From: a virus
DNA: 64,000 bases
Direction: 5' to 3' (one strand)
IMG/VR virus record: IMGVR_UViG_3300025122_005335
Span: 1 to 64,000 of that record
Under the pieces are notes generated by a model. The model saw only the letters and a program-made list of their open reading frames with translations, was not told the DNA's origin and did no database searches. The position numbers and the translations under genes are program-made. Below, one piece after another: positions 1,431 through 55,986 of the stretch; position 1 is the stretch's first letter, and the number at the start of each line of letters is the position of its first letter.

Positions 1431-2290
1431 TAAAAATAACTTTGTTTAATTTTTCGTTTATATGAACATTCAGGCATATCGTTAACAATTTTTTCAAATT
1501 GTGGTTGTGTTATATTTCCAGCTTTATAACTTTCATACTCAATACACCCAACCATGCAATTTGTTCTATCTTGTATTGATTTAATAAACATAGTAGCAGC
1601 GAACATTTCATCTGGGTCGCCAGTATCGAACCATGCATATTTACTCTCATGTTCATTAAACCACAAAGTGCCATCGTCCATGTAACTGAGATTTAAATCA
1701 GTTATTTCTAATTCGCCTCTGTCAGATTGTTTCAATGCTAGCGCTCTTTCTCCTGCAGTATTGTCATAAAAATAAATACCAGTTACTGCTAAATTAGAAT
1801 TTGTATGTTTGGGTTTTTCTTCTATAGATATAATTTCGCTAATTTTTGTCAGTTTATTTTCTTCAACACACACTACCCCATATAGATGAGGATCTTTGAC
1901 TTTATAACCTGTTATACATGCTCCATACTCTACCGGCCAAGGGGTCTTTTTTATACCTGTAAATAAGTTGTCTCCTAAAATTAAACAAACGTCATTATCG
2001 CCTTGCCATTCTTCTGCTATAATTAACGCTTCTGCTATACCAGCTGGTTTTTTTTGAATTCTAAATGTAAAATTAATACCCAGATATTCTTTACCCAATA
2101 AATCTAAAATATGATTATATGCTACCCCATTTGTTATAATCATAATTTCTTTAATTCCCAATTTTATTAGGGTTGAAAGAGGATAATAAATTGTAGGTTT
2201 GTCGTAAATTGGGAGAAGTTGTTTAGATACAACTTTTGTGCTTGGATAAACTCTTGTCCCTGAACCCCCAGCTAAAATTATACCTTTCAT
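1430..2290 (-). CDS. rmlA: Glucose-1-phosphate thymidylyltransferase
   Basis: MKGIILAGGSGTR, SKQLLPIYDKP, LILGDN, EEKP, RGELEITD, WFDTG. Confidence 0.95.
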   Translation of the reverse strand: MKGIILAGGSGTRVYPSTKVVSKQLLPIYDKPTIYYPLSTLIKLGIKEIMIITNGVAYNHILDLLGKEYLGINFTFRIQKKPAGIAEALIIAEEWQGDNDVCLILGDNLFTGIKKTPWPVEYGACITGYKVKDPHLYGVVCVEENKLTKISEIISIEEKPKHTNSNLAVTGIYFYDNTAGERALALKQSDRGELEITDLNLSYMDDGTLWFNEHESKYAWFDTGDPDEMFAATMFIKSIQDRTNCMVGCIEYESYKAGNITQPQFEKIVNDMPECSYKRKIKQSYF

Positions 2291-2490
2291 TTTTCTTCTT
2301 CTGTTTCTTCTTTAGGTTCTTCTTTATCTCGAGCTTTAATTTTTTCTATGAGAAATTCAACCAATTGTAGTCGAGCTGCTTCTGAGGCAAAATTTATTTG
2401 TGGGTTGTTGTCGTTATATTCTTCTAATATCTTTATTAACGTAGAAGTTGTATCAAACCATTGAGCAAGTTCTTTATTGGTTATTGTCAT
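2287..2490 (-). CDS. Hypothetical protein
   Basis: 67-aa ORF overlapping the rmlA start; TATCAT 6 nt upstream of ATG. Confidence 0.6.
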   Translation of the reverse strand: MTITNKELAQWFDTTSTLIKILEEYNDNNPQINFASEAARLQLVEFLIEKIKARDKEEPKEETEEEK

Positions 2491-2513
2491 AAAACTATGA
2501 TATGGTTAAAGCC

Positions 2514-2596
2514 AAAAAAAACCATGCAGGCCCACCTATATAATAGCTACAAGTACCACCACATACATCGTAGCCCACCAAACAGCCTGCATGGTT
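2514..2596 (-). ncRNA. Candidate late small RNA (rod-like hairpin with U tail) containing an 18-codon ORF at 2536-2592
   Basis: Perfect 12-bp inverted repeat 2520-2531/2585-2596, inner stem with G.U pairs on the - strand, U-tract at 2514-2521, TAAATA at 2602-2607. Confidence 0.55.
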
Positions 2597-2600
2597 AAAG

Positions 2601-3296
2601 TTATTTATCACTGGACCAATTTTTACAATATCTTAAACTAGAAATTTTTTTCTTTTTATATGCAAGATCTTCCCATGTGTATCCGTATTTCCCATAATGC
2701 GTTAATTTTATAGTGCTATCTACATAAATTTCATACCCACATTGTTTCGCATATTTGCAAAAAGAAAAATCTTCTCCGAGATAATAATGTCTATCCCCTT
2801 CTTCCCACACGTTAGGTCTGAACCACGGATAGCTAGGGCAGTCAAAACTAGTATTACAAAGAGGTAGTTTTAATTCATCAACCATACGTGTGTATACGTC
2901 TCTTTTCGTGTATAAAAATCCAGTTGCTACACAATGTACTTCATACACACCCCCACCTTCTCCAAAAATAATTTCTTGGTCGTCGTATAAAGGATCAAAA
3001 GTCAATTCCGGGTGGCCTTTAAACGGGTAAACCCCTGCAATAATGTGTTTTTCACTATTTTGTAATTTTTTTATATCTTCTATTTCGAAATCCACATCAC
3101 CGTCTATCCATATTAATTCTTCAAAGTCTCTTTGATATATAGCGTCATAAGCCATTCTAGATCTACATTGATCAATAGCCGAATATCCGGGTGTTCGCCA
3201 CACTTCGTACCCCATTTTTTCTAATTCTCTGAGTTTGCAGTCAACATTAAAAACAATACCCCCATTACATGGTACTAATATTACTGTCTTACTCAT
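2601..3296 (-). CDS. GT-A fold glycosyltransferase (GT2-like); likely start MSKTV at 3296
   Basis: WIDGDV DxD motif, ATGFLY, GEDFSFC, LTHYG. Confidence 0.75.
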   Translation of the reverse strand: MSKTVILVPCNGGIVFNVDCKLRELEKMGYEVWRTPGYSAIDQCRSRMAYDAIYQRDFEELIWIDGDVDFEIEDIKKLQNSEKHIIAGVYPFKGHPELTFDPLYDDQEIIFGEGGGVYEVHCVATGFLYTKRDVYTRMVDELKLPLCNTSFDCPSYPWFRPNVWEEGDRHYYLGEDFSFCKYAKQCGYEIYVDSTIKLTHYGKYGYTWEDLAYKKKKISSLRYCKNWSSDK

Positions 3297-3321
3297 TGTC
3301 TTTTTACTTCCTTTTAGTATA

Positions 3322-4008
3322 TTATGTGGGTATAAGTTCATTTACGTAATGTTTATCATATAGGTAAAAAAATTTTTCTATTTGAATCGGGTGTTCGTAA
3401 TTAAGAAATTTGTTTGGGTTTATTTTAATGCCGCTTTTTTGCAAAATGTTTCCTATAGCGACATCTTCTATAGAGAATTTTTCGTACTTTTCTTTTCCTT
3501 TATAAGAAATTATAGTTTGTATTGATTTTTTACTAAAAATTACACACTCTCCTGAACAATACTGGTTTGGTAATTCACCTTGATATGCTTTTCTAATTTT
3601 ATAATTTTTTAAAGTACAAAATTTATTTCTAATTAACTCTTCATCGGTTATCAAAACCTTATTACCCACATAATCCCCGGAAATTTTGTGTTCTAAAAAG
3701 GTATCCACGTTATATAAAAATGTATCGTCATCTATTTTTAGAGCGTGAGTATAATCTTTGTTTATGATTTTTTTAAAAAAACCAAATAATTTTTTGTGTA
3801 CGTTGGAAATGTTGTCGGGTGTCTTAATATATACATCTGTATAAGATATCCCGTCTCTTTTACAGTGTACCATACGTGAAATGTTCCCACCATAGACGAA
3901 ATAAATATCCATGTTATCGGGAATATGTTTCAAATATGTATCTAAAGCTGCTAGTTTAAATCCTATATTATTTTCAAAGGTTAATATTGCTAAAGCGTAT
4001 TTCGTCAT
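3322..4008 (-). CDS. GT31/galactosyltransferase-like glycosyltransferase
   Basis: KIDDDTF, YCSGECVIFS and IEDVAIG motifs. Confidence 0.75.
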   Translation of the reverse strand: MTKYALAILTFENNIGFKLAALDTYLKHIPDNMDIYFVYGGNISRMVHCKRDGISYTDVYIKTPDNISNVHKKLFGFFKKIINKDYTHALKIDDDTFLYNVDTFLEHKISGDYVGNKVLITDEELIRNKFCTLKNYKIRKAYQGELPNQYCSGECVIFSKKSIQTIISYKGKEKYEKFSIEDVAIGNILQKSGIKINPNKFLNYEHPIQIEKFFYLYDKHYVNELIPT

Positions 4009-4885
4009 AGTTAATTTTGTTTTTTAAAAGGTCATATATGCTGCCTTTTTCTTTTGTTGGGTTGAAATTTGCAAACGTAAGTTTGGCAAAATTGAAATAG
4101 ACATTTAAAAATGTAAAAAGTTCTATTTCAGTAAAGATTCTATCATATTCGGATAAATAGTACTTTATTGCACCAATATACATTTGTTTTATTGAATGTG
4201 CCTTTCTTACAGTCAACCCTAACAAACCTGCAGATGCAGACCAATAGTCAATTTTTGTATCCCAAAATTTTTCAATGAATAATTCTGGTTCTATTCCAAC
4301 ATAAGGTAAACCTATCATAAAATTATTGGTTTTTTCGAATAATTTAAAAATATTTTTTCCTAAAGTTGGGTTAAAAATATCATTTTCGTTTTTAGGGTAG
4401 TAGTTATCCCAATTTTGTACTTTTATATCATGCCAAGTACCACCACACTCTTCGGGAATATAAGATTCGTTACTTAACCCGGCATCCATCCAGACAACTC
4501 TTTCGTATTTTAAACTAATAGCATCTAAAATATAAAATAGCTTTGCTGTTGTAAGCATAGGACTCCAACAGTAAACACCAGTTGGGTTTTTATCTATTAT
4601 TTTCTTACTATATTCAAATATTTCGTCGTAAAAGGGGTTAATATCTTTTGAAGTTTTATTAATAAATGTTGGTAAAGACTGTACTTTGTCTTTCAAAGCA
4701 TTAGTTATATCTTCTTCTACAGATTTGTTACAATAAATTAAAAGTTCTTTATCTAAATTTAAAAGACTTTTTATACCAGTAAAATAATGTTCCGGTATAA
4801 AATTTCTTGTTAATTTTGTGTCCTGACCTTCTGGTTGATAATTTTCAACCAATTCGACCGCGGTAACAATACAGTCTTTTAACAT
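3974..4885 (-). CDS. HtrL/YibB/WlaTC-like putative glycosyltransferase
   Basis: IVTA N-terminus, K-x-F-x-I/V motif, VWMDAG, FTEIE. Confidence 0.6.
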   Translation of the reverse strand: MLKDCIVTAVELVENYQPEGQDTKLTRNFIPEHYFTGIKSLLNLDKELLIYCNKSVEEDITNALKDKVQSLPTFINKTSKDINPFYDEIFEYSKKIIDKNPTGVYCWSPMLTTAKLFYILDAISLKYERVVWMDAGLSNESYIPEECGGTWHDIKVQNWDNYYPKNENDIFNPTLGKNIFKLFEKTNNFMIGLPYVGIEPELFIEKFWDTKIDYWSASAGLLGLTVRKAHSIKQMYIGAIKYYLSEYDRIFTEIELFTFLNVYFNFAKLTFANFNPTKEKGSIYDLLKNKINYDEIRFSNINL

Positions 4886-5379: not shown

Positions 5380-5477
5380 GACAACAATATTTAATCACAC
5401 ATCCTCGAGAATTCAAGTGTTTTTCCCGCCAACCCACCTCCTTGAACCTATTGATTTATATCTCCTTCAAAATCTAT

Positions 5478-15515: not shown

Positions 15516-15520
15516 ATGTA

Positions 15521-15526
15521 TATTTA
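15521..15526 (-). promoter_or_regulatory. T4-type late promoter for gp18
   Basis: CATAAATA followed by 5 nt and then ATG. Confidence 0.75.
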
Positions 15527-15574
15527 TGTTTTTTAGAGAAAGAATTTGTAAAACTTAATTTTTAATTAAATAGA

Positions 15575-17912: not shown

Positions 17913-17937
17913 TATTTAAACCAGTATCGTATAAATA
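17913..17937. promoter_or_regulatory. Back-to-back late promoters for gp17 (-) and the 17943 gene (+)
   Basis: TTAAATA on - at 17913-17919; TATAAATA on + at 17930-17937, 5 nt before ATG. Confidence 0.75.
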
Positions 17938-17942
17938 TAAAC

Positions 17943-19226
17943 ATGAACGCAGGGAAAAATCGTAAAAGAGATTTAGAACTTTTAAGTGAGGTGTATTCAG
18001 AAGCTATGGGTTACGCCGGTGGCCGTGGATCTGTTAATACTCAACCAGGTGCGGGTGGTACCGGAGATTACGATGATAGCACAGGGCAGATTACACAACG
18101 TGCTGAAGACCAAAACCCTTTAGAAAATCCGTTTGGAGAGAGTGAGGAGACATACGAAGGTGAAGAAGAGAGCCAACAACGAAGAGCTGCGAGGCAATTG
18201 GAAGACGAGGGTTATACCGGAGGCAGGGCAGACAATAAAGGCAATTTGATATATAATAAAGGCACTTCGCATGCTCGAGTAGATACAGATGGGCAAATTA
18301 ACGGCCAACCAGCGCAAGAGTTTTTTAGAGGAACCGGTACAGAAGATGCAGAAGATTTTGGAAGCCCTAATTCAAATAGATCAGGTTGGGGAAGTGATGC
18401 TTTTTCACACCCGGGTAGCAATGAGACAACTGATGAAGATGAAGGGGGAATAATGGGTATAGATGATTGTGAAGATGAACCAGGTAAAATAGATGTAGTT
18501 ATAAACCCAGCATCAGCGCACGGTATAAGAGATATTCTTAAAAATATTTTTAGTAAGGATGATGAAGATCAAGAAGATGATGATTGGATGGATGAGGAAC
18601 CACCGGGGCTCAAATACGGCGTCGGTTCTGAAGAACCGGAAGGAATGAAGCATTATGATGATGCTGCACAAGCTCATAAAGCAGATGAAAGAGAAAATAG
18701 AAAAAATCTTCGCGCTCAAAATAGAATTGCTAAAAAATATGGTTTTAATCCTGACGAAAATGCTGAAGATACAGACGAATATGATACAAATCTTTTTAAA
18801 CATCTTGATAAACGAAATACAGATGAGGCTGAGAAACAAGGTTTTGATCCAGGTTTAAAGAATGTTCGTCATAGTGATGAAGATGAAGTTGATCGAGAGG
18901 GAAGATATAAAGAACGTTGGGGTAAAGATCTAGACGACGAAAAAGATCGCGAAGGTAGTTCAAACGCTGGTGAATATACAAACGTAGATAAAGACGAATT
19001 TTGTGGACCATCTGGTGGTGCCGCAGATGGGACATACCCTGTTAATACAAGAAAAAGAGCAGAAGCTGCTAAACGGTTAGCGCATAATGCGCCAGACCCA
19101 GATGGAATAAAAAGATGCGCTGATAGAGCATTAGCTAAAGATTCTTATTATTCTTCTAAAGGTGATAGAGCAATGACTCAAATAACTGAATCATATGAGC
19201 AAGTTTTAAAAAATGGCTTACTATAA
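17943..19226 (+). CDS. Acidic, modular putative virion/internal head protein
   Basis: Late promoter; D/E/G-rich; N-terminus MNAGKNRKRDL shared with the 19706 ORF. Confidence 0.6.
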   Translation: MNAGKNRKRDLELLSEVYSEAMGYAGGRGSVNTQPGAGGTGDYDDSTGQITQRAEDQNPLENPFGESEETYEGEEESQQRRAARQLEDEGYTGGRADNKGNLIYNKGTSHARVDTDGQINGQPAQEFFRGTGTEDAEDFGSPNSNRSGWGSDAFSHPGSNETTDEDEGGIMGIDDCEDEPGKIDVVINPASAHGIRDILKNIFSKDDEDQEDDDWMDEEPPGLKYGVGSEEPEGMKHYDDAAQAHKADERENRKNLRAQNRIAKKYGFNPDENAEDTDEYDTNLFKHLDKRNTDEAEKQGFDPGLKNVRHSDEDEVDREGRYKERWGKDLDDEKDREGSSNAGEYTNVDKDEFCGPSGGAADGTYPVNTRKRAEAAKRLAHNAPDPDGIKRCADRALAKDSYYSSKGDRAMTQITESYEQVLKNGLL

Positions 19227-24378: not shown

Positions 24379-24410
24379 ATTAATATTTATAAAAAAGCAT
24401 AAATATATAC

Positions 24411-26100: not shown

Positions 26101-27025
26101 ATCTGTTGTTTATATATTTATTATTTAATAGATTGACTTTATCTACAAGTTCTTGGATAATATCAGTTGAAAAGAATGAGTTAACCCATTTGTCTCTATT
26201 TGTTACTATACCGTCGATTCCCAATTCACAACACCTATTAAAGAATTTGGTTGAATCTTTTTTTGGCATACCCTGTTGTAATTGTTCCTTGTATGAAATT
26301 TCTTCTTCTTTATAGTATCTCCACCCATATTGTAGATCCATCATGTCATGATTGTGTTCGTAGACTTTAAAGTTTTCTTTTGTTAAAATTTGATCCCAAT
26401 GTGGTGTCTTGTTGTATTTTTCCAATAACTTTATCGCTCTTTTATGACCTATTTTTGGTAATCCTTTTATATTATCACTGTTATCACCAATAATAGATTT
26501 GTAATCTAAAAAGTTTTGAAGAGATACCCCTTTAGTGAAGTTCTCAAAGTTTTCTTTTGTTATTGCTGCTTTTTGGATAGGGTTAAAAACCAGAGTATCC
26601 TGATCGATAAGTTGATACAAATCTTTGTCTACTGTAATAATTTGTTTCTTTCCATGTAACACTTCTGTTAACCAACTTATAACGTCATCAGCTTCTAACC
26701 TATATGGGTATATACTCTTTATTCCTAAGTGATCCATTAATTCTCTCAACGTTTCATCATTTTTGTGAGCTTCTTTAGCTACTTCACCGTCTCTATTGCT
26801 CTTATAGTTTCCTTTTGATGTGGTTTTTCTGAAATTAGATGAAGGATATAGGAGTTTTTTATCCCATGCTGCATATATATGATCAGGTTTAAATTTATCT
26901 ACATAAGATTTGACTGATCTTAAAAACATTAAGGTGGCCATATTAATATTACCGTCTTTTATGTTTTTGTTTACCCAGAAAATTCTATAGAGTAAATTAT
27001 TTGCGTCTAGAATAAGATTTTTCAT
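26084..27025 (-). CDS. 5'-3' exonuclease / RNase H (FEN family)
   Basis: LILDANN, YKSNR, EADDVI, TVDKDLYQL, GDNSDNIKG. Confidence 0.92.
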   Translation of the reverse strand: MKNLILDANNLLYRIFWVNKNIKDGNINMATLMFLRSVKSYVDKFKPDHIYAAWDKKLLYPSSNFRKTTSKGNYKSNRDGEVAKEAHKNDETLRELMDHLGIKSIYPYRLEADDVISWLTEVLHGKKQIITVDKDLYQLIDQDTLVFNPIQKAAITKENFENFTKGVSLQNFLDYKSIIGDNSDNIKGLPKIGHKRAIKLLEKYNKTPHWDQILTKENFKVYEHNHDMMDLQYGWRYYKEEEISYKEQLQQGMPKKDSTKFFNRCCELGIDGIVTNRDKWVNSFFSTDIIQELVDKVNLLNNKYINNRYATTE

Positions 27026-27218
27026 TCTTTTTACCCTTTCTATTATTAGATTTGTTGTTACCCTTATCAGAAAGTATAAAAAGTCTTTCTTTTACCGCTT
27101 TTTTCACCTTAGTTTTAGTGTTCGTAGAAGCAAATTCATACTTCGCAAATTTTTCAACTAATGTATCGATTTCTTTTTCGTTTTTTGCTTTGAGGATCGT
27201 GTCTCTTAACGAATTCAT
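26997..27218 (-). CDS. Hypothetical basic protein; start ATG at 27218
   Basis: Perfect TTGACA-N16-TATAAT-N6-ATG upstream. Confidence 0.65.
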   Translation of the reverse strand: MNSLRDTILKAKNEKEIDTLVEKFAKYEFASTNTKTKVKKAVKERLFILSDKGNNKSNNRKGKKNEKSYSRRK

Positions 27219-27224
27219 ACCCAA

Positions 27225-27252
27225 ATTATAGAGTATCTATATAGGATGTCAA
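27225..27252 (-). promoter_or_regulatory. Consensus sigma70-type promoter with 16-bp spacer
   Basis: TTGACA TCCTATATAGATACTC TATAAT on the - strand. Confidence 0.85.
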
Positions 27253-27261
27253 CTAACTTTG

Positions 27262-27552
27262 TTAATTTGTTGCTTCATATTGAGCTTTAATAACGTTATA
27301 TACAGCTTTGGGTAGAACTTCTACAAAGTCTACTATTCCTTCTTTTAGACCGCTTTCAAAATCGTTTTTAGGTACTTCTATTTTTTGATTATGGGGTATT
27401 GTTAAAAATATATGTTTTTCGGGGGTAGTAAGTATATAAGCGCAAAAATGACCAGCATAATCACCATTTTTTATAGCATATAAATATCTAGGTTTGGGTT
27501 TTTTGGTATTTCTTATAATATTCGATAATTTCATTCCATTCATTCCTATCAT
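27262..27552 (-). CDS. Hypothetical protein (start uncertain)
   Basis: ORF overlapping the rmlB end. Confidence 0.6.
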   Translation of the reverse strand: MIGMNGMKLSNIIRNTKKPKPRYLYAIKNGDYAGHFCAYILTTPEKHIFLTIPHNQKIEVPKNDFESGLKEGIVDFVEVLPKAVYNVIKAQYEATN

Positions 27553-28429
27553 TTATACTTCTTTTTGCAGAAAACCCTAAGTCTTTTATTTTATTAAAAT
27601 TTAATGCATATCTATAATCATGACCAGGTCTATCAGTAATGTATTTAATTTTAGCAGAAGTATCCGTATATTTAGCAATCATTTTTGCTATTTCATTGTT
27701 TGATATTTCTTCTCCTGTCCCGATATTGTAAACTTCTCCTGACTTTCCCTTTTCAGAAACTAATATAATACCTTCAGCATGATCTTCTGCATGTATCCAT
27801 TCACGTACATTATTACCGTCACCGTAAATTGAAATTTCTTTATCGTTTATTGCTGAAAAAATAGATTTTGGTAGTAACTTCTCTGCATGTTGACCTATTC
27901 CAAAATTATTACAACAACGGGTAACTCGAATATCCATTCCATATGTCTTACAAAATGACAATGCAATCAAATCTGAGCTAGCTTTTGAAGCTGAATAGGG
28001 TGAATTTGGTTTTAAAGGTTCATTTTCGTCCCAACTTTCAAGATTACCCGTTAATGCACCGTATACTTCATCGGTGGATACATGAACTACTGGCTTGTTA
28101 TATTGTTTTGCTAAGTTCAATACGTTCATTGTACCTATTATATTGGTATGGGCAAATATATTAGGGTCTGAAATGCTATTATCTACGTGAGATTCAGCTG
28201 CTAAGTGAAATATTTTGTCAAATTTATGAATTCTGAAGACACTTCCTAACATTTTCTCATCTAATATGTCACCCTTTATATTCCAGGTGTTTGGAACTGA
28301 CTTTTTATCTACATACTCACACGCGTATGTTTGTTTGTCATAAACAATTGAATTATATCCTCTTTTTTTGAGGCTTCTTATTAGGTGACCACCAATAAAC
28401 CCATAACCACCTGTAACTAAAACATTCAT
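27488..28429 (-). CDS. rmlB: dTDP-glucose 4,6-dehydratase
   Basis: VTGGYGFIG, HLAAESHVDNSI, HVSTDEVYG, PYSASKA, REWIH, DRPGHDYRY. Confidence 0.95.
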   Translation of the reverse strand: MNVLVTGGYGFIGGHLIRSLKKRGYNSIVYDKQTYACEYVDKKSVPNTWNIKGDILDEKMLGSVFRIHKFDKIFHLAAESHVDNSISDPNIFAHTNIIGTMNVLNLAKQYNKPVVHVSTDEVYGALTGNLESWDENEPLKPNSPYSASKASSDLIALSFCKTYGMDIRVTRCCNNFGIGQHAEKLLPKSIFSAINDKEISIYGDGNNVREWIHAEDHAEGIILVSEKGKSGEVYNIGTGEEISNNEIAKMIAKYTDTSAKIKYITDRPGHDYRYALNFNKIKDLGFSAKRSINDRNEWNEIIEYYKKYQKTQT

Positions 28430-30929: not shown

Positions 30930-31649
30930 CTATACTTGAAGCCCAGGGACGATATATTTTAACATTACATTATCACTTGACACTTCAAAAGTACTTAGTC
31001 CTTGTTCTGTATTAATCCTTACTATAATTTCATTTTGATTTGTACTAGCTAACAAACGAACAATATCAAAATGTATCGGGAAGCTAAGATTGTCTGCATC
31101 TGTTTCATCACAAACTTTTATTGAATAACTATCGACAGAAGAATTAGACCTGTCTGTAATTTCAGCAAATATTTCTCCGTTGTCAATATTAAAATATAAT
31201 TTTTCCGACTCAGCTACAAAAGCAGCTCCTTTAGCTAGTTCGCTAATTTTAGACGAATTAATTTTAAATTCGATATTAAATGGTAGATTTAAAATCTTTT
31301 GTACACTTAATTTTGGAGCTTGAATAATATTATCATCTAAAAAATGATATTTAAATCGCAATTGCTTATCCTTATATGATATACAATTTTCTTTATATTG
31401 TAATTTTACTTCACTTAGTTCAATAAATGATAAAATCTTTTCTAATTTTCTTACGTTAGGTATATTTAAAATTAAATTGTTTTCTACTTCCAAATTATAT
31501 GATGCATATACTATCAACCCTTGCTCATTGTTTGTAATGCACTCTAGTTTATTGTTTTTACTTTTAATAATAATAGCTTCAGTCAATGCACTTATCGGAC
31601 GCAAATAATCTGTAACAAATTGATTTTTATTTTTGATGTTTATGATCAT
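30930..31649 (-). CDS. Sliding clamp (gp45-like)
   Basis: Size (239 aa), two-domain beta-rich clamp pattern, C-terminal LKYIV; near gp32. Confidence 0.75.
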   Translation of the reverse strand: MIINIKNKNQFVTDYLRPISALTEAIIIKSKNNKLECITNNEQGLIVYASYNLEVENNLILNIPNVRKLEKILSFIELSEVKLQYKENCISYKDKQLRFKYHFLDDNIIQAPKLSVQKILNLPFNIEFKINSSKISELAKGAAFVAESEKLYFNIDNGEIFAEITDRSNSSVDSYSIKVCDETDADNLSFPIHFDIVRLLASTNQNEIIVRINTEQGLSTFEVSSDNVMLKYIVPGLQV

Positions 31650-43922: not shown

Positions 43923-44483
43923 TCAACTAGTAATTATTCTGTCGTCATACTCAATAACTCCTTTATCATCACGATACTTCGCAATCTCATTACCACGATA
44001 GTCCCAAAAGTTCTTATGCTCAGCATCAGAAATAGAATCTTTGTAACAGTCTGTAAAACAATTAGGAGTCTCATACAATCTAATATGATCAATCCACAAG
44101 TGCTGATATGGAGCAAACAAAATATTTTGAGCTAGGAACACTTCTTTAACTAAATTCTCTACTGATGGGTTACAATATTCTTCACCACCACTTAGTGACA
44201 TTTTATACAACTTACTATCTACACTAGCAGCGGCATCAATTAAAAGAGTATCTTTAGGATTTAAAATAGCTCCATGATCTAAAATATCATCAATCCATTG
44301 ACAACCTACACGCTTAATCTCTTTAAAATCAATAGCGTAACCAATATCTTCCATCTGACTAAAACCAAATGTTAATTCAAATAGGTACGTATGCCCATGC
44401 ACATTAAAACATTTCATACGCTCATTCATCACTCGATGCATTGAATCAAATGTCCCTTTTCTTGTTATTGTTTGTTTACTCAT
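43923..44483 (-). CDS. queD: 6-carboxy-5,6,7,8-tetrahydropterin synthase
   Basis: FDSMHR, CFNVHGHTY (CxxxHGH), IDF, LDH, NPSVEN, LYETP; overlaps the gp43 stop. Confidence 0.9.
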   Translation of the reverse strand: MSKQTITRKGTFDSMHRVMNERMKCFNVHGHTYLFELTFGFSQMEDIGYAIDFKEIKRVGCQWIDDILDHGAILNPKDTLLIDAAASVDSKLYKMSLSGGEEYCNPSVENLVKEVFLAQNILFAPYQHLWIDHIRLYETPNCFTDCYKDSISDAEHKNFWDYRGNEIAKYRDDKGVIEYDDRIITS

Positions 44484-47070
44484 TTTCTGCTAAAATACTA
44501 AATAAGTCGCACTGTACTGCTTGATTGGGTAAATAACATTTCCAATTTACCGCATTATAAAATCTTTCTAAAGGTGTAAAAATTAATTTTTCGTATATTT
44601 TGTCGTAGTTAGGTTTAAAATATTCATCAAATTCTTTTGGCCATTCATATTTGTATGCTATAGCATCAATATTATACCTATTTGGTTTTTTAATGTAAAA
44701 ATACCTCACTTTATCCCCTGATGCAATGCTTTCATACTTTTTATCAAGCTTATGTAATTTTAGCATTTTATTATAAAAATATGCTGCTTTACAATGTATA
44801 GGCATACCTTTAACTGTTTTCATTCCATCACATTGTCCCGCGTATTTTTCGTATCCTCTAATACCCATAACTGTTGCTATTTCTGTAATAGGTAATGATT
44901 TGAATTTTTCATACACTTCAGCCATAGCTTCATTTGTTTTTTGATAATCTTGCGTTTTAAGCATTATTTGTATGACATTTTTCATATATGGTTTTAATGA
45001 ATTAGGTAATGTTGTTCTAACTACTTCTACCCCCGTATATTTTGTTTTGTTTATTTTTGCACCTTCATCATCCAAAATATTCATCACATATCTTTTTTTC
45101 TGCAAAAACACACCCACTTCTCCAATACATTCTCGTTTAAACAAAAATCTACAATCTTTACTATTAAACGTTTTTTTACCCCACTTTATAATTTCATGAT
45201 TTAGATACTTTACTAACTCAATTTCCATTTTATAAATGTCATCATGAACTTCCCCTTTTTCGTTTTTAAAGTTTAAACCTAAATGTTTAATCAAAAGTTC
45301 AATTGATGCATATGATGAATCTGTATCATTGTAGATAATTGGATCATTTGCTTTCAACTCTTTGTCACTCAACCCAGTTTTGTTTTTAATATAGTTTCTG
45401 ATAATTATATTACTTTGTTTGATTACTGCTTGCCCTGTTAGTGTTACTGATGATGCAATATCATCATCACCAACTGGTGCGTTTTTATTCCCAAAGTAAC
45501 CGTATATTGAGTTAATTAAAATTTTAATTGTAAGTTGTTTTGTACCTAAACGCTGTACATCGACCCCGGTTTCCTCATAGTCCGGATCTCTTTTTTTCAT
45601 TACTGCATGTTTCTTTTTTAGTTCAACATATTCATCTTTTACTACTAACCGTTTACTATAGTAGTAATCTAAAATTTCTGGAATAATTCCCTTTTCTTGT
45701 TGATGAAATACAATATTTGCTTTTGATATTGTTAACTTATAATCTTTTACCATTTTTATGAATTTAGGTATTGTAAATTCCTTTACTTTACCGTTTACCA
45801 TTTCCATCACCACTTGATTGTCAGTTTTTTCTAAAATTTTTCCAACTTTAGTTTCTGGTGATAAGTTTAATGATATCATTACATTTGGGTATAGACTGTT
45901 TGCATCAAATGATAAAATGTAATTTTGAAACCCTTGTTGTGGTTCACTAACATATGCACCCGGGTTCTTACCAGTATCCTGACCTCTGATAAATGTAGGT
46001 ATGATTTGTTGTTTGTGTCTTGCTCGTATACAAAATGCCCCGTTGATTACAGATAGTGCCCCCATTGCTGCATCAAATGTAACACACCCAACATATGCTA
46101 ACATTCGTATTAAACCCAAATATTGTAATTTTATTTCTAATTTTACTAACAAGTTTACATCCTGAATATTATAATCAATAAATTTGTTCCAATCTTTATC
46201 AGATAATGTTGCAAGATCCATTCCTTCAAATTCTACTTTTCGTTCACCTAATTCTTGTTCCCCAATTGCATCTAGTTTATATGATTCTCTCAAAGGTGCA
46301 AATTTTTTGTATATATCCAAATAATCTAACAAAGCAATACCTTCAATATACCACCTTATTTGTTGTCTACCAAAAGCACCTTGAAGACTTCTATAATATA
46401 CATTTTTTACAGGAGATAATCTTTTCATCTGTTCTTCACCCATAATTCTTTCACATCTTTTAACAATATAAGGAATGTCAAAAAATTCAGAGTTCCAGCC
46501 ACTTAAAATATCTGGATAGTCATTTTCTAAATAATCTAAAAATTTACTAAACAATACTCTTTCTGTTTCGCAGTAAGTATATTTTAAATTTTTCCTACCC
46601 TTACCTGTATATTCTTTGGTACCCCAAGTATAAAATTTATTTTTCAAATTATCATAAACCGTTATGACATTTATTGGGTGGTTGGCATTTTCAATATTAG
46701 GAAACCCATCAGGTGAATAAGTTTCAATATCCAATAACAACATTTTTATGGGATGTTTTGTAAATTCATCTGTCTCGTTTACTTGCCAAAAATTATCTAA
46801 CAAAAATTGTTGTTTGATTGGTAAATTTTCAAACAATCTTTTAATTTGATTGTTTCTAATAAATTGTCTTCTTTCTGATTCTCTTTTAAATGTAACCTTT
46901 CTTAGAGGGCTTTTGAATATAGACGTTGCATTTGAATGTCGTTTGTCTTTTGGTTCAATATACAAATATGGGTTATAACTTTGAATTACTTCAATTCTTT
47001 TTCCATCTTCATCCCAAGTAAACAGTCTCATTTGTTCTTGAGAAGGTTCATAAACTACATTCCTATACAT
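44476..47070 (-). CDS. Family B DNA polymerase (gp43)
   Basis: DIET, GWNSEFFD and YNIQD exonuclease motifs; DANSLYP, KILINSIYG, YNDTDS, KKRY. Confidence 0.96.
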   Translation of the reverse strand: MYRNVVYEPSQEQMRLFTWDEDGKRIEVIQSYNPYLYIEPKDKRHSNATSIFKSPLRKVTFKRESERRQFIRNNQIKRLFENLPIKQQFLLDNFWQVNETDEFTKHPIKMLLLDIETYSPDGFPNIENANHPINVITVYDNLKNKFYTWGTKEYTGKGRKNLKYTYCETERVLFSKFLDYLENDYPDILSGWNSEFFDIPYIVKRCERIMGEEQMKRLSPVKNVYYRSLQGAFGRQQIRWYIEGIALLDYLDIYKKFAPLRESYKLDAIGEQELGERKVEFEGMDLATLSDKDWNKFIDYNIQDVNLLVKLEIKLQYLGLIRMLAYVGCVTFDAAMGALSVINGAFCIRARHKQQIIPTFIRGQDTGKNPGAYVSEPQQGFQNYILSFDANSLYPNVMISLNLSPETKVGKILEKTDNQVVMEMVNGKVKEFTIPKFIKMVKDYKLTISKANIVFHQQEKGIIPEILDYYYSKRLVVKDEYVELKKKHAVMKKRDPDYEETGVDVQRLGTKQLTIKILINSIYGYFGNKNAPVGDDDIASSVTLTGQAVIKQSNIIIRNYIKNKTGLSDKELKANDPIIYNDTDSSYASIELLIKHLGLNFKNEKGEVHDDIYKMEIELVKYLNHEIIKWGKKTFNSKDCRFLFKRECIGEVGVFLQKKRYVMNILDDEGAKINKTKYTGVEVVRTTLPNSLKPYMKNVIQIMLKTQDYQKTNEAMAEVYEKFKSLPITEIATVMGIRGYEKYAGQCDGMKTVKGMPIHCKAAYFYNKMLKLHKLDKKYESIASGDKVRYFYIKKPNRYNIDAIAYKYEWPKEFDEYFKPNYDKIYEKLIFTPLERFYNAVNWKCYLPNQAVQCDLFSILAENE

Positions 47071-47118
47071 GTGAGTTAATTATAGTTTACTCTTCAAATA
47101 TTTCAAGTAAATAATACT

Positions 47119-53914: not shown

Positions 53915-54400
53915 TCAATTATAATAGGCCTCATTTTCGTCCGTGGGTTTAACATAAACTGTTGTTTGTGCGTTTTGGCCATCGTTTAACGACTCTTCGT
54001 AAATTCTTTCTTTATATTCATTAAGAGCTTCATGGTGTCGTTTTTCTTTTTTAATTCGATTAATAAATGCATGAAACGCAATTGTAGTAAAATATGAAAA
54101 AGGATTGTATTTGTTACCATTTGAATCTGTTGCTTCTAAATTGAATTTTTTATTGAAAAGAGCTGTAAACATTTTTACAACTGCATCACCGATCATTTCA
54201 TCTTTGTAGCTATAATTTATAAAATTAGGCGCATAACTTAAACCGTGAGCAATTTTTGTTATCATTTCACCAAGCTCATTTCCACATACGTCGGTTTTAT
54301 AATAAGTTGCAATTGCTTCTTTGAATTCTTTTGAATTAACGTAATGTTCTTTACTTTTAGGTTTAATTTTAACGCCGTTTTTAGGTTTTTTTGCTTGCAT
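53915..54400 (-). CDS. Late-transcription sigma factor (gp55)
   Basis: HYVNSKEF, NFINYSYKDEMIGDA, NPFSYFTTIAFHAFINRIKKEK. Confidence 0.93.
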   Translation of the reverse strand: MQAKKPKNGVKIKPKSKEHYVNSKEFKEAIATYYKTDVCGNELGEMITKIAHGLSYAPNFINYSYKDEMIGDAVVKMFTALFNKKFNLEATDSNGNKYNPFSYFTTIAFHAFINRIKKEKRHHEALNEYKERIYEESLNDGQNAQTTVYVKPTDENEAYYN

Positions 54401-55927: not shown

Positions 55928-55965
55928 AAAAAAATACCCCCGTCTACGAATAGACGGGGTGTTTT
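55928..55965 (-). terminator. Intrinsic terminator (possibly bidirectional)
   Basis: CCCCGTCTA-cgaa-TAGACGGGG (UUCG loop on -), flanked by A and T runs. Confidence 0.85.
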
Positions 55966-55986
55966 AGAATTGTTAGAAGATTATAA

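Follow-up and report, generated by a model that had tools for sequence, protein, structure and literature searches.

The DNA analysed here (the window) comprises positions 1-64,000 of an IMG/VR viral record of 80 kb, whose completeness is estimated at 38%. Its source phage is a deeply branching T4-like myovirus of an uncultured, marine lineage. The window carries structural genes for the tail sheath and tail tubes and also encodes UvsY, while the family-B DNA polymerase of the phage is only ~31% identical to its best cyanophage and marine-virus hits. INPHARED holds no isolate of the lineage; the phages collected there gave no DNA match to the locus described below and no match to the small protein encoded downstream of it. 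Also encoded are a sliding clamp that is gp45-like and a late sigma factor that is gp55-like (Table 1); T4-type late-transcription machinery is therefore present.

The element studied here occupies a 110-nt gap that separates two minus-strand genes, with sugar-gene modules on both sides. A preliminary description of this DNA had seen on the minus strand TAAATA 5 nt ahead of a perfect 12-bp closing stem, a run of U after that stem, an inner hairpin, three GGUGG words, an 18-aa reading frame with its AUG inside the closing stem, and a 10-nt direct repeat; all of these are present (Table 1). The promoter-like motif reads in full GATAAATA, the arms of the closing stem (P1) are separated by 53 nt, a run of eight T comes after the G in the 3′ arm, and the inner hairpin has the form GGCUACGA-U-GUAU-(GUGGUG)-GUAC-UUGUAGCU. 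The segment had also been called much more GC-rich than its flanks, and here the enrichment stood while the wording was mildly overstated (G+C 0.42 in 2500-2599, against ~0.28-0.33 in the flanks). When both strands were folded, the minus strand gave a minimum free energy of -36.5 kcal/mol (z = -4.0; 1 of 200 shuffles folds equally well) and the plus strand a weaker -25.1 kcal/mol. Seven of the 28 pairs in the window copy are G.U. The predicted RNA would run from 2596 to about 2514, a length of 83 nt.

Table 1. Positions of the element, its parts and the genes referred to in the text (window numbering).
Feature	Position	Strand	Remarks
246-aa upstream gene	2601-3341	-	sole family match is an uncharacterised PHROG; follows a Galactosyl_T gene
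Late-promoter motif GATAAATA	2609-2602	-	T4 type, NATAAATA; overlaps the TAA stop (2603-2601) of the 246-aa gene
Predicted transcription start, +1	2596	-	first paired base of P1; placed by motif spacing
P1 5′ arm AACCAUGCAGGC	2585-2596	-	perfect inverted repeat with the 3′ arm; holds the AUG of the 18-aa frame
18-aa reading frame MQAVWWATMYVVVLVAII	2536-2592	-	from the preliminary description; not conserved
P1a 5′ side UUUG	2579-2582	-	pairs with UAGG at 2535-2538; RNAalifold consensus
Inner hairpin P2 + P3	2545-2575	-	P2 is GGCUACGA with UUGUAGCU, then a bulged U; P3 is GUAU with GUAC
Hexaloop GUGGUG	2557-2562	-	caps P3
P1 3′ arm GCCUGCAUGGUU	2520-2531	-	3′ half is (A/T)TGGTT
Terminator U tail	2514-2519	-	eight U consecutive, two of them paired in P1
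10-nt direct repeat	2502-2511 and 2591-2600		
-10-like hexamer TATCAT	2497-2502	-	6 nt ahead of the 67-aa gene, whose ATG is at 2490
67-aa downstream gene	2287-2490	-	followed by NTP_transferase and PfkB kinase genes
gp45-like sliding clamp	30930-31649	-	phrog_223
gp55-like late sigma factor	53915-54400	-	phrog_234, E = 1e-28

Recurrence of the element and conservation of its fold

A first relative of the locus (L005) was reached through a neighbouring protein that is 90% identical; a 24-nt string from the core then led to three further IMG/VR contigs, and an exact 20-nt core seed from the centre of the hairpin to 16 metagenome loci. The sample considered below comprises 16 distinct 120-nt variants from ocean metagenomes, representing 11 distinct RNAs. 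As the exact 20-nt seed spans P3 and the inner half of P2, the invariance of these parts is partly by construction. Searching IMG/VR with an exact-stem pattern gave no match, and a seed-free, protein-based scan of IMG/VR recovered only the same four contigs. Seed-independent patterns run against GTDB genomes and IMG/VR returned, beyond the known contigs, only chance matches that were all rejected by the covariance model, and gave no hint of a host. The covariance model R1 itself found one copy in each of three viral records, every other match scoring ≤17 bits. Scanning Rfam 15 with E up to 10 yielded chance matches only, the best of them being an animal microRNA model with E = 0.45 and 19.8 bits, where the gathering threshold is 80; no riboswitch, leader or phage-associated family was matched. 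ARAGORN found no tRNA at the site.

The element keeps the same junction in all loci, and the small downstream gene is linked to it in every locus that reaches far enough. Its immediate upstream neighbour is the 246-aa gene or, where this is absent, a 228-aa galactosyltransferase homologue. The 246-aa gene comes and goes (window, 2601-3341, versus loci L007, L008, L011, L012, L015, L017 and L022), L010 is without the downstream NTP_transferase gene and L015 has an extra 73-aa gene; the RNA element marks a gene-flux junction, like the PeSL cassettes in T4-type coliphages.

Pairing is preserved throughout the sample. In alignment A1 of the 16 variants all 374 cells of the 24 counted pairs are standard pairs, and the same is true for all 438 cells of a wider pair set. 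Five P1 pairs are changed on both sides with pairing kept (U-A/A-U, G-C/U.G, A-U/G-C, C-G/U-A and C-G/U-A/U.G). None of 500 shuffles reached the observed pairing values, a control in which the partners were slid brought pairing down to 28-45%, and RNAalifold independently gave P1, P1a, P2 and P3. In P1a, a G-to-A change in L005 and L016 converts G.U to A-U, while the changes in outer P2 are solely one-sided, wobble-compatible transitions (A-U to G.U, C-G to U.G). The compensatory changes probably amount to only ~5-6 independent events because the variants are related.

G.U pairs make up 104 of the 438 cells, and on the opposite strand only 76% of the cells would pair, with 24% broken. The quarter of cells that are G.U and the 76% figure together place the constraint on minus-strand RNA (or a single strand) and not on duplex DNA, in agreement with the strand-specific G.U pairing noted earlier from the window copy. 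Mean nucleotide identity across the RNA is 0.89 (0.86 outside the seed), whereas the adjacent gene reaches 0.72 over its first 144 nt and the spacer 0.62; among the more distant loci, identity of the neighbouring proteins falls to 42-68%. The contig of one relative has no listed differences in 2512-2599 and 15 in 2355-2492, a match made via shared words and hence non-independent evidence. That the structure is more than chance is upheld by its recurrence with compensatory changes in 16 distinct variants, and we conclude with high confidence that the element is a conserved structured RNA.

Promoter and terminator signals around the element

The motif ATAAATA is invariant in 16 of 16 variants while the bases surrounding it vary, and it is invariant with either of the two upstream genes; its position relative to the upstream stop codon differs among variants, the motif either overlapping the stop or lying 9-10 nt beyond it. 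Five nucleotides separate it from the first stem base (A or G) in 11 of the 11 variants measured, and this spacing is found also in L010, despite 2 extra base pairs at the foot of its stem. In the numbering of T4 late promoters the first base of the motif is -13 and its last A is -6 (PMC2988020), which with the fixed 5-nt spacing puts the predicted +1 exactly on the first paired base. There are 21 ATAAATA sites in the window, 11 of which sit 5-7 nt before an ATG; the tail sheath gene, the tail tube gene and about nine others carry the motif 5 nt ahead of their ATG. TATAAATA is under-represented in the window (6 found versus 16 expected). This arrangement suggests that the phage uses T4-type late promoters yielding leaderless mRNAs. 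The element has the geometry of a late gene, with the stem replacing the ATG, and none of the orphan ATAAATA sites at 5475, 9060, 27480 and 55918 has a comparably stable fold downstream.

Two further observations concern transcription and translation elsewhere in the window. A perfect TATAAATA at 27479-27486(+) is intergenic and opposes the neighbouring minus-strand genes, with no plus-strand gene for 11 kb; transcription from it would run antisense to the gene at 27488-28429, and the initial 109 nt of such an RNA fold unremarkably (z = -1.1). The phage also appears to be almost wholly leaderless, with late genes in the form ATAAATA-N5-ATG and many early genes in the form TTGAnn-N17-TATAAT-N6-7-ATG; examples are found at 15516-15527(-), 17931-17945(+), 24384-24390(-), 44476-47112(-) and 26997-27260(-). 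An SD-like word occurs in only 4 of 77 crude gene calls, which together with the leaderless layout suggests that translation in the host starts independently of SD pairing.

At the 3′ end of the element, a P1 of 12-14 bp is followed by a run of 6-8 U in every variant. Again in every variant, a hexamer TAT(A/C/T)AT and, 6-7 nt after it, the ATG of the small gene come next, and this -10-like sequence is likely to be the early promoter of a leaderless mRNA. The (A/T)TGGTT in the P1 3′ arm, 16-17 nt from the hexamer, would be in the position of a -35 box; if the 3′ arm is read in this way, the conservation of P1 could partly serve the downstream promoter. Judged by these motifs, the element fills the terminator slot of a terminator-promoter cassette with a PeSL-like layout.

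The downstream protein is 53-74 aa long in relatives; its model is a hairpin of two helices, predicted with confidence (pLDDT 83), and its acidic tail, also rich in lysine, varies in length. Its relatives fall into 34 clusters, all of the same lineage and on contigs of up to 221 kb; searches with the protein gave no family or sequence match, and no PDB structure match below E = 3.9. A Rop-like RNA-binding role is unsupported (Rop at rank 11, E = 7.3, with no sequence match). A type III toxin-antitoxin layout of RNA, terminator and protein was also considered for the locus and dropped, there being no tandem repeats and the protein being far too small.

The position of these signals raises the possibility that the element is merely an unusually long intrinsic terminator and insulator, and a 3′-end stabiliser, of the glycosyltransferase operon that has become fused to the next early promoter, ATAAATA then not working as the promoter of a separate RNA. 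The stem and its U run stand exactly between two co-oriented gene modules, the -10-like box 6 nt before the next ATG completes a terminator-then-promoter layout that recurs in the window, and genes are gained and lost on both sides of the element as at the PeSL cassettes of T4-type phages (PMC2839356). However, the ordinary terminators of the source phage are hairpins of only ~20-30 nt, whereas the interior of the element alone is 53 nt, structured and highly conserved, and termination needs no interior of this size that is conserved above the adjacent coding sequence. In six other terminator-like hairpins inspected in the window, GC stems of 8-11 bp carry loops of 3-4 nt, and ATAAATA precedes none of them; an explanation confined to termination thus leaves unaccounted for a motif that is invariant and held at a fixed spacing in several upstream contexts. 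We consider it unlikely. Separately, a GC-rich hairpin at 55928-55969, bordered on each side by runs of A and T, resembles a terminator working in both directions where convergent or divergent units meet.

A less probable explanation, and in our estimation a poor one, is that the element acts in cis as a 5′ leader or attenuator: transcripts starting late at 2596 would end at the U run or else continue into the small, nucleotidyltransferase and kinase genes, with a factor or ligand bound by the interior setting the ratio. The anatomy does resemble that of a riboswitch or attenuator, in that a promoter leads directly into a conserved structured domain closed by a terminator stem, and the downstream genes (NTP_transferase, PfkB) make activated sugar. 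However, no conserved antiterminator pairing was found. The preliminary description had offered the 10-nt repeat as an alternative partner for the 3′ arm that would free the AUG in a read-through transcript; this pairing was dropped, since the complement is only 6 nt and confined to the subgroup of the window, the repeat being degenerate or absent in other subgroups. The downstream gene, moreover, has its own -10-like box at the usual leaderless spacing of this phage, and the Rfam scan described above, with E up to 10, gave no riboswitch or leader for the element.

Reading frames within the element

The 18-aa frame had been put forward as a conformationally gated membrane peptide of the ibs kind, and the relatives do not support this. 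It is intact in 2 of the 16 variants, namely the window and L023. Two more (L005 and L016) have a stop at codon 5, in L005 through a TGG-to-TAG change that keeps both stems via G.U-compatible changes; one (L024) is frameshifted; in three (L011, L012 and L021) the frame is lengthened to 31-39 aa; and the remaining eight have no ATG. These eight read AAG or AAT in its place, while a matching change in the 3′ arm preserves the stem, and the substitution therefore obeys pairing and not coding. A comparison of stem covariation with codon conservation in homologues had been suggested as a check, and its outcome is that pairing is kept and the frame is lost, with substitutions following base-pairing rules.

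An inner frame (MYVVVLVA...) opens at an AUG within P2/P3 that is itself base-paired, and its first eight codons are present in all variants, by construction because they lie inside the search seed. From there on its length ranges from 9 to 78 aa and its C-termini are unrelated among variants. In one subgroup the inner frame runs into the next gene. Public gene calls of 78-88 aa (L015:3217-3460(-) and the proteins P0028 and P0038) begin inside the RNA (MYVVVLVAFVGWPAWFF...) and continue in frame into the downstream gene; these fused calls are most likely an annotation artefact of the open G/U-rich frame of the RNA. The hydrophobic character of the peptides results from G/U-rich codons (GUN, UUN, UGG, GGN), and the hydrophobic mini-ORF of the window is probably a by-product of G/U-rich sequence.

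It is accordingly very improbable that either frame encodes a small hydrophobic membrane peptide acting like a type I toxin or in lysis timing: an 18-aa frame open in two variants, an inner AUG with eight codons in all 16 and the frame fusions made by gene callers speak for it, but these are set against the loss of the outer frame in most variants, the seed-bound origin and erratic length of the inner one with its paired AUG, substitutions that track base-pairing instead of codons, and a hydrophobicity that is expected of any translated G/U-rich RNA.

A candidate late RNA and its comparison with known systems

We propose, with a probability of roughly 0.6, that the element specifies a non-coding RNA of its own, made late, and serves in addition as the terminator of the upstream operon. 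This corresponds to the unannotated late phage small RNA of ~80 nt that the preliminary description had named as one of its two possibilities, and it draws on the covariation, the invariant and correctly spaced late-promoter motif and the terminator, the promoter being recognised at the level of motifs. A gp55-type sigma factor with RNA polymerase would recognise (N)ATAAATA late in infection and initiation would take place 6 nt after the motif, on the first base of the 12-14-bp P1. In the RNA, P1 would enclose the weak P1a helix, a G-rich internal loop (GGUGGG) and the P2/P3 hairpin with its GUGGUG loop. The product would be a small non-coding RNA of about 80-84 nt, self-terminating because P1 and the U run together form an intrinsic terminator, and having both ends paired or nearly so would suit a stable RNA. 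The same hairpin would also terminate early and middle transcripts coming from the upstream glycosyltransferase genes, and the next gene would restart from its own -10 box, 6 nt ahead of the ATG. Transcription of the element, the ends and timing of its RNA and any function in trans are in this proposal predictions drawn from the fold and the flanking motifs.

Since the best-conserved unpaired parts of the RNA are two G/U-rich loops, its most likely mode of action would be to bind a protein or an RNA partner rich in C/A. An antisense target for the apical region was searched for within the window and none was found. The sole further site of similar sequence is a 14-nt string equal to the apical region (TGTGGTGGTACTTG) at 4434-4447(-), inside a 303-aa gene; it is of the same sense and non-complementary, and is probably a coincidence.

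Far more tentatively, the element may represent a new structured RNA family of an abundant, uncultured lineage of ~221-kb marine T4-like phages, produced late and in large amounts, whose GGUGGG and GUGGUG loops would sequester a factor, so that it would serve as a decoy rather than as a terminator. Its partner would be a host or phage protein or a C/A-rich RNA end such as the 3′ terminus of tRNA, and the decoy RNA may work together with the always-linked gene for the two-helix protein downstream.

To our knowledge very few non-coding RNAs of T4-like phages have been described, and the uncultured marine lineages dominant in ocean viromes have contributed almost none. The clean anatomy of the element, with its late promoter, covarying fold and terminator, makes it directly testable. 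The locus also illustrates that a neat hydrophobic mini-ORF in a G/U-rich RNA can be a by-product of composition, and that public gene calls have taken part of an RNA for protein.

Among known systems, the type I toxin mRNAs of the ibs/Sib kind share with the window copy alone an 18-aa hydrophobic frame and an AUG sequestered in a stem. They differ in that the frame of the element is not conserved and that no antisense partner or ribosome-binding signal is evident at the locus; membership of this class fails on its defining feature.

The PeSL (promoter-early stem-loop) cassettes of T4-type phages (Arbiol et al., 2010; PMC2839356) resemble the element in lying at a site of gene flux and may resemble it in the tight joining of a stem-loop terminator to a sigma-70-like promoter of the next small gene. 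At the level of motifs the putative early promoter is represented at the element by TAT(A/C/T)AT in all variants, with (A/T)TGGTT, which overlaps P1, as its only candidate -35. A single genome, however, contains numerous similar PeSLs, between which recombination takes place (PMC2839356), whereas the element is single-copy in each of the three viral records, three times longer than the other terminators of its phage and preceded by a late promoter motif.

With intrinsic terminators the element has in common a stem of 12-14 bp, rich in G+C, and a tract of 6-8 U after it, 3′ of a gene and at the end of an operon. It differs from them in having a structured 53-nt interior in place of a 3-8-nt loop, and in being constrained above the level of the neighbouring coding DNA; a simple short-loop hairpin with an unconstrained interior is not what the 16 variants present.

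Stand-alone small RNAs with their own promoter and intrinsic terminator are known from phages, examples being OOP of lambda and Sar of P22. The element is a long rod with conserved G/U-rich loops and a T4-late-type promoter motif; in these respects it differs from them, as it does in having no sequence or Rfam kinship and no complementary target in the window. With them it shares a compact unit of ~80 nt in a phage genome, made up of promoter, hairpin and terminator and free of any conserved reading frame.
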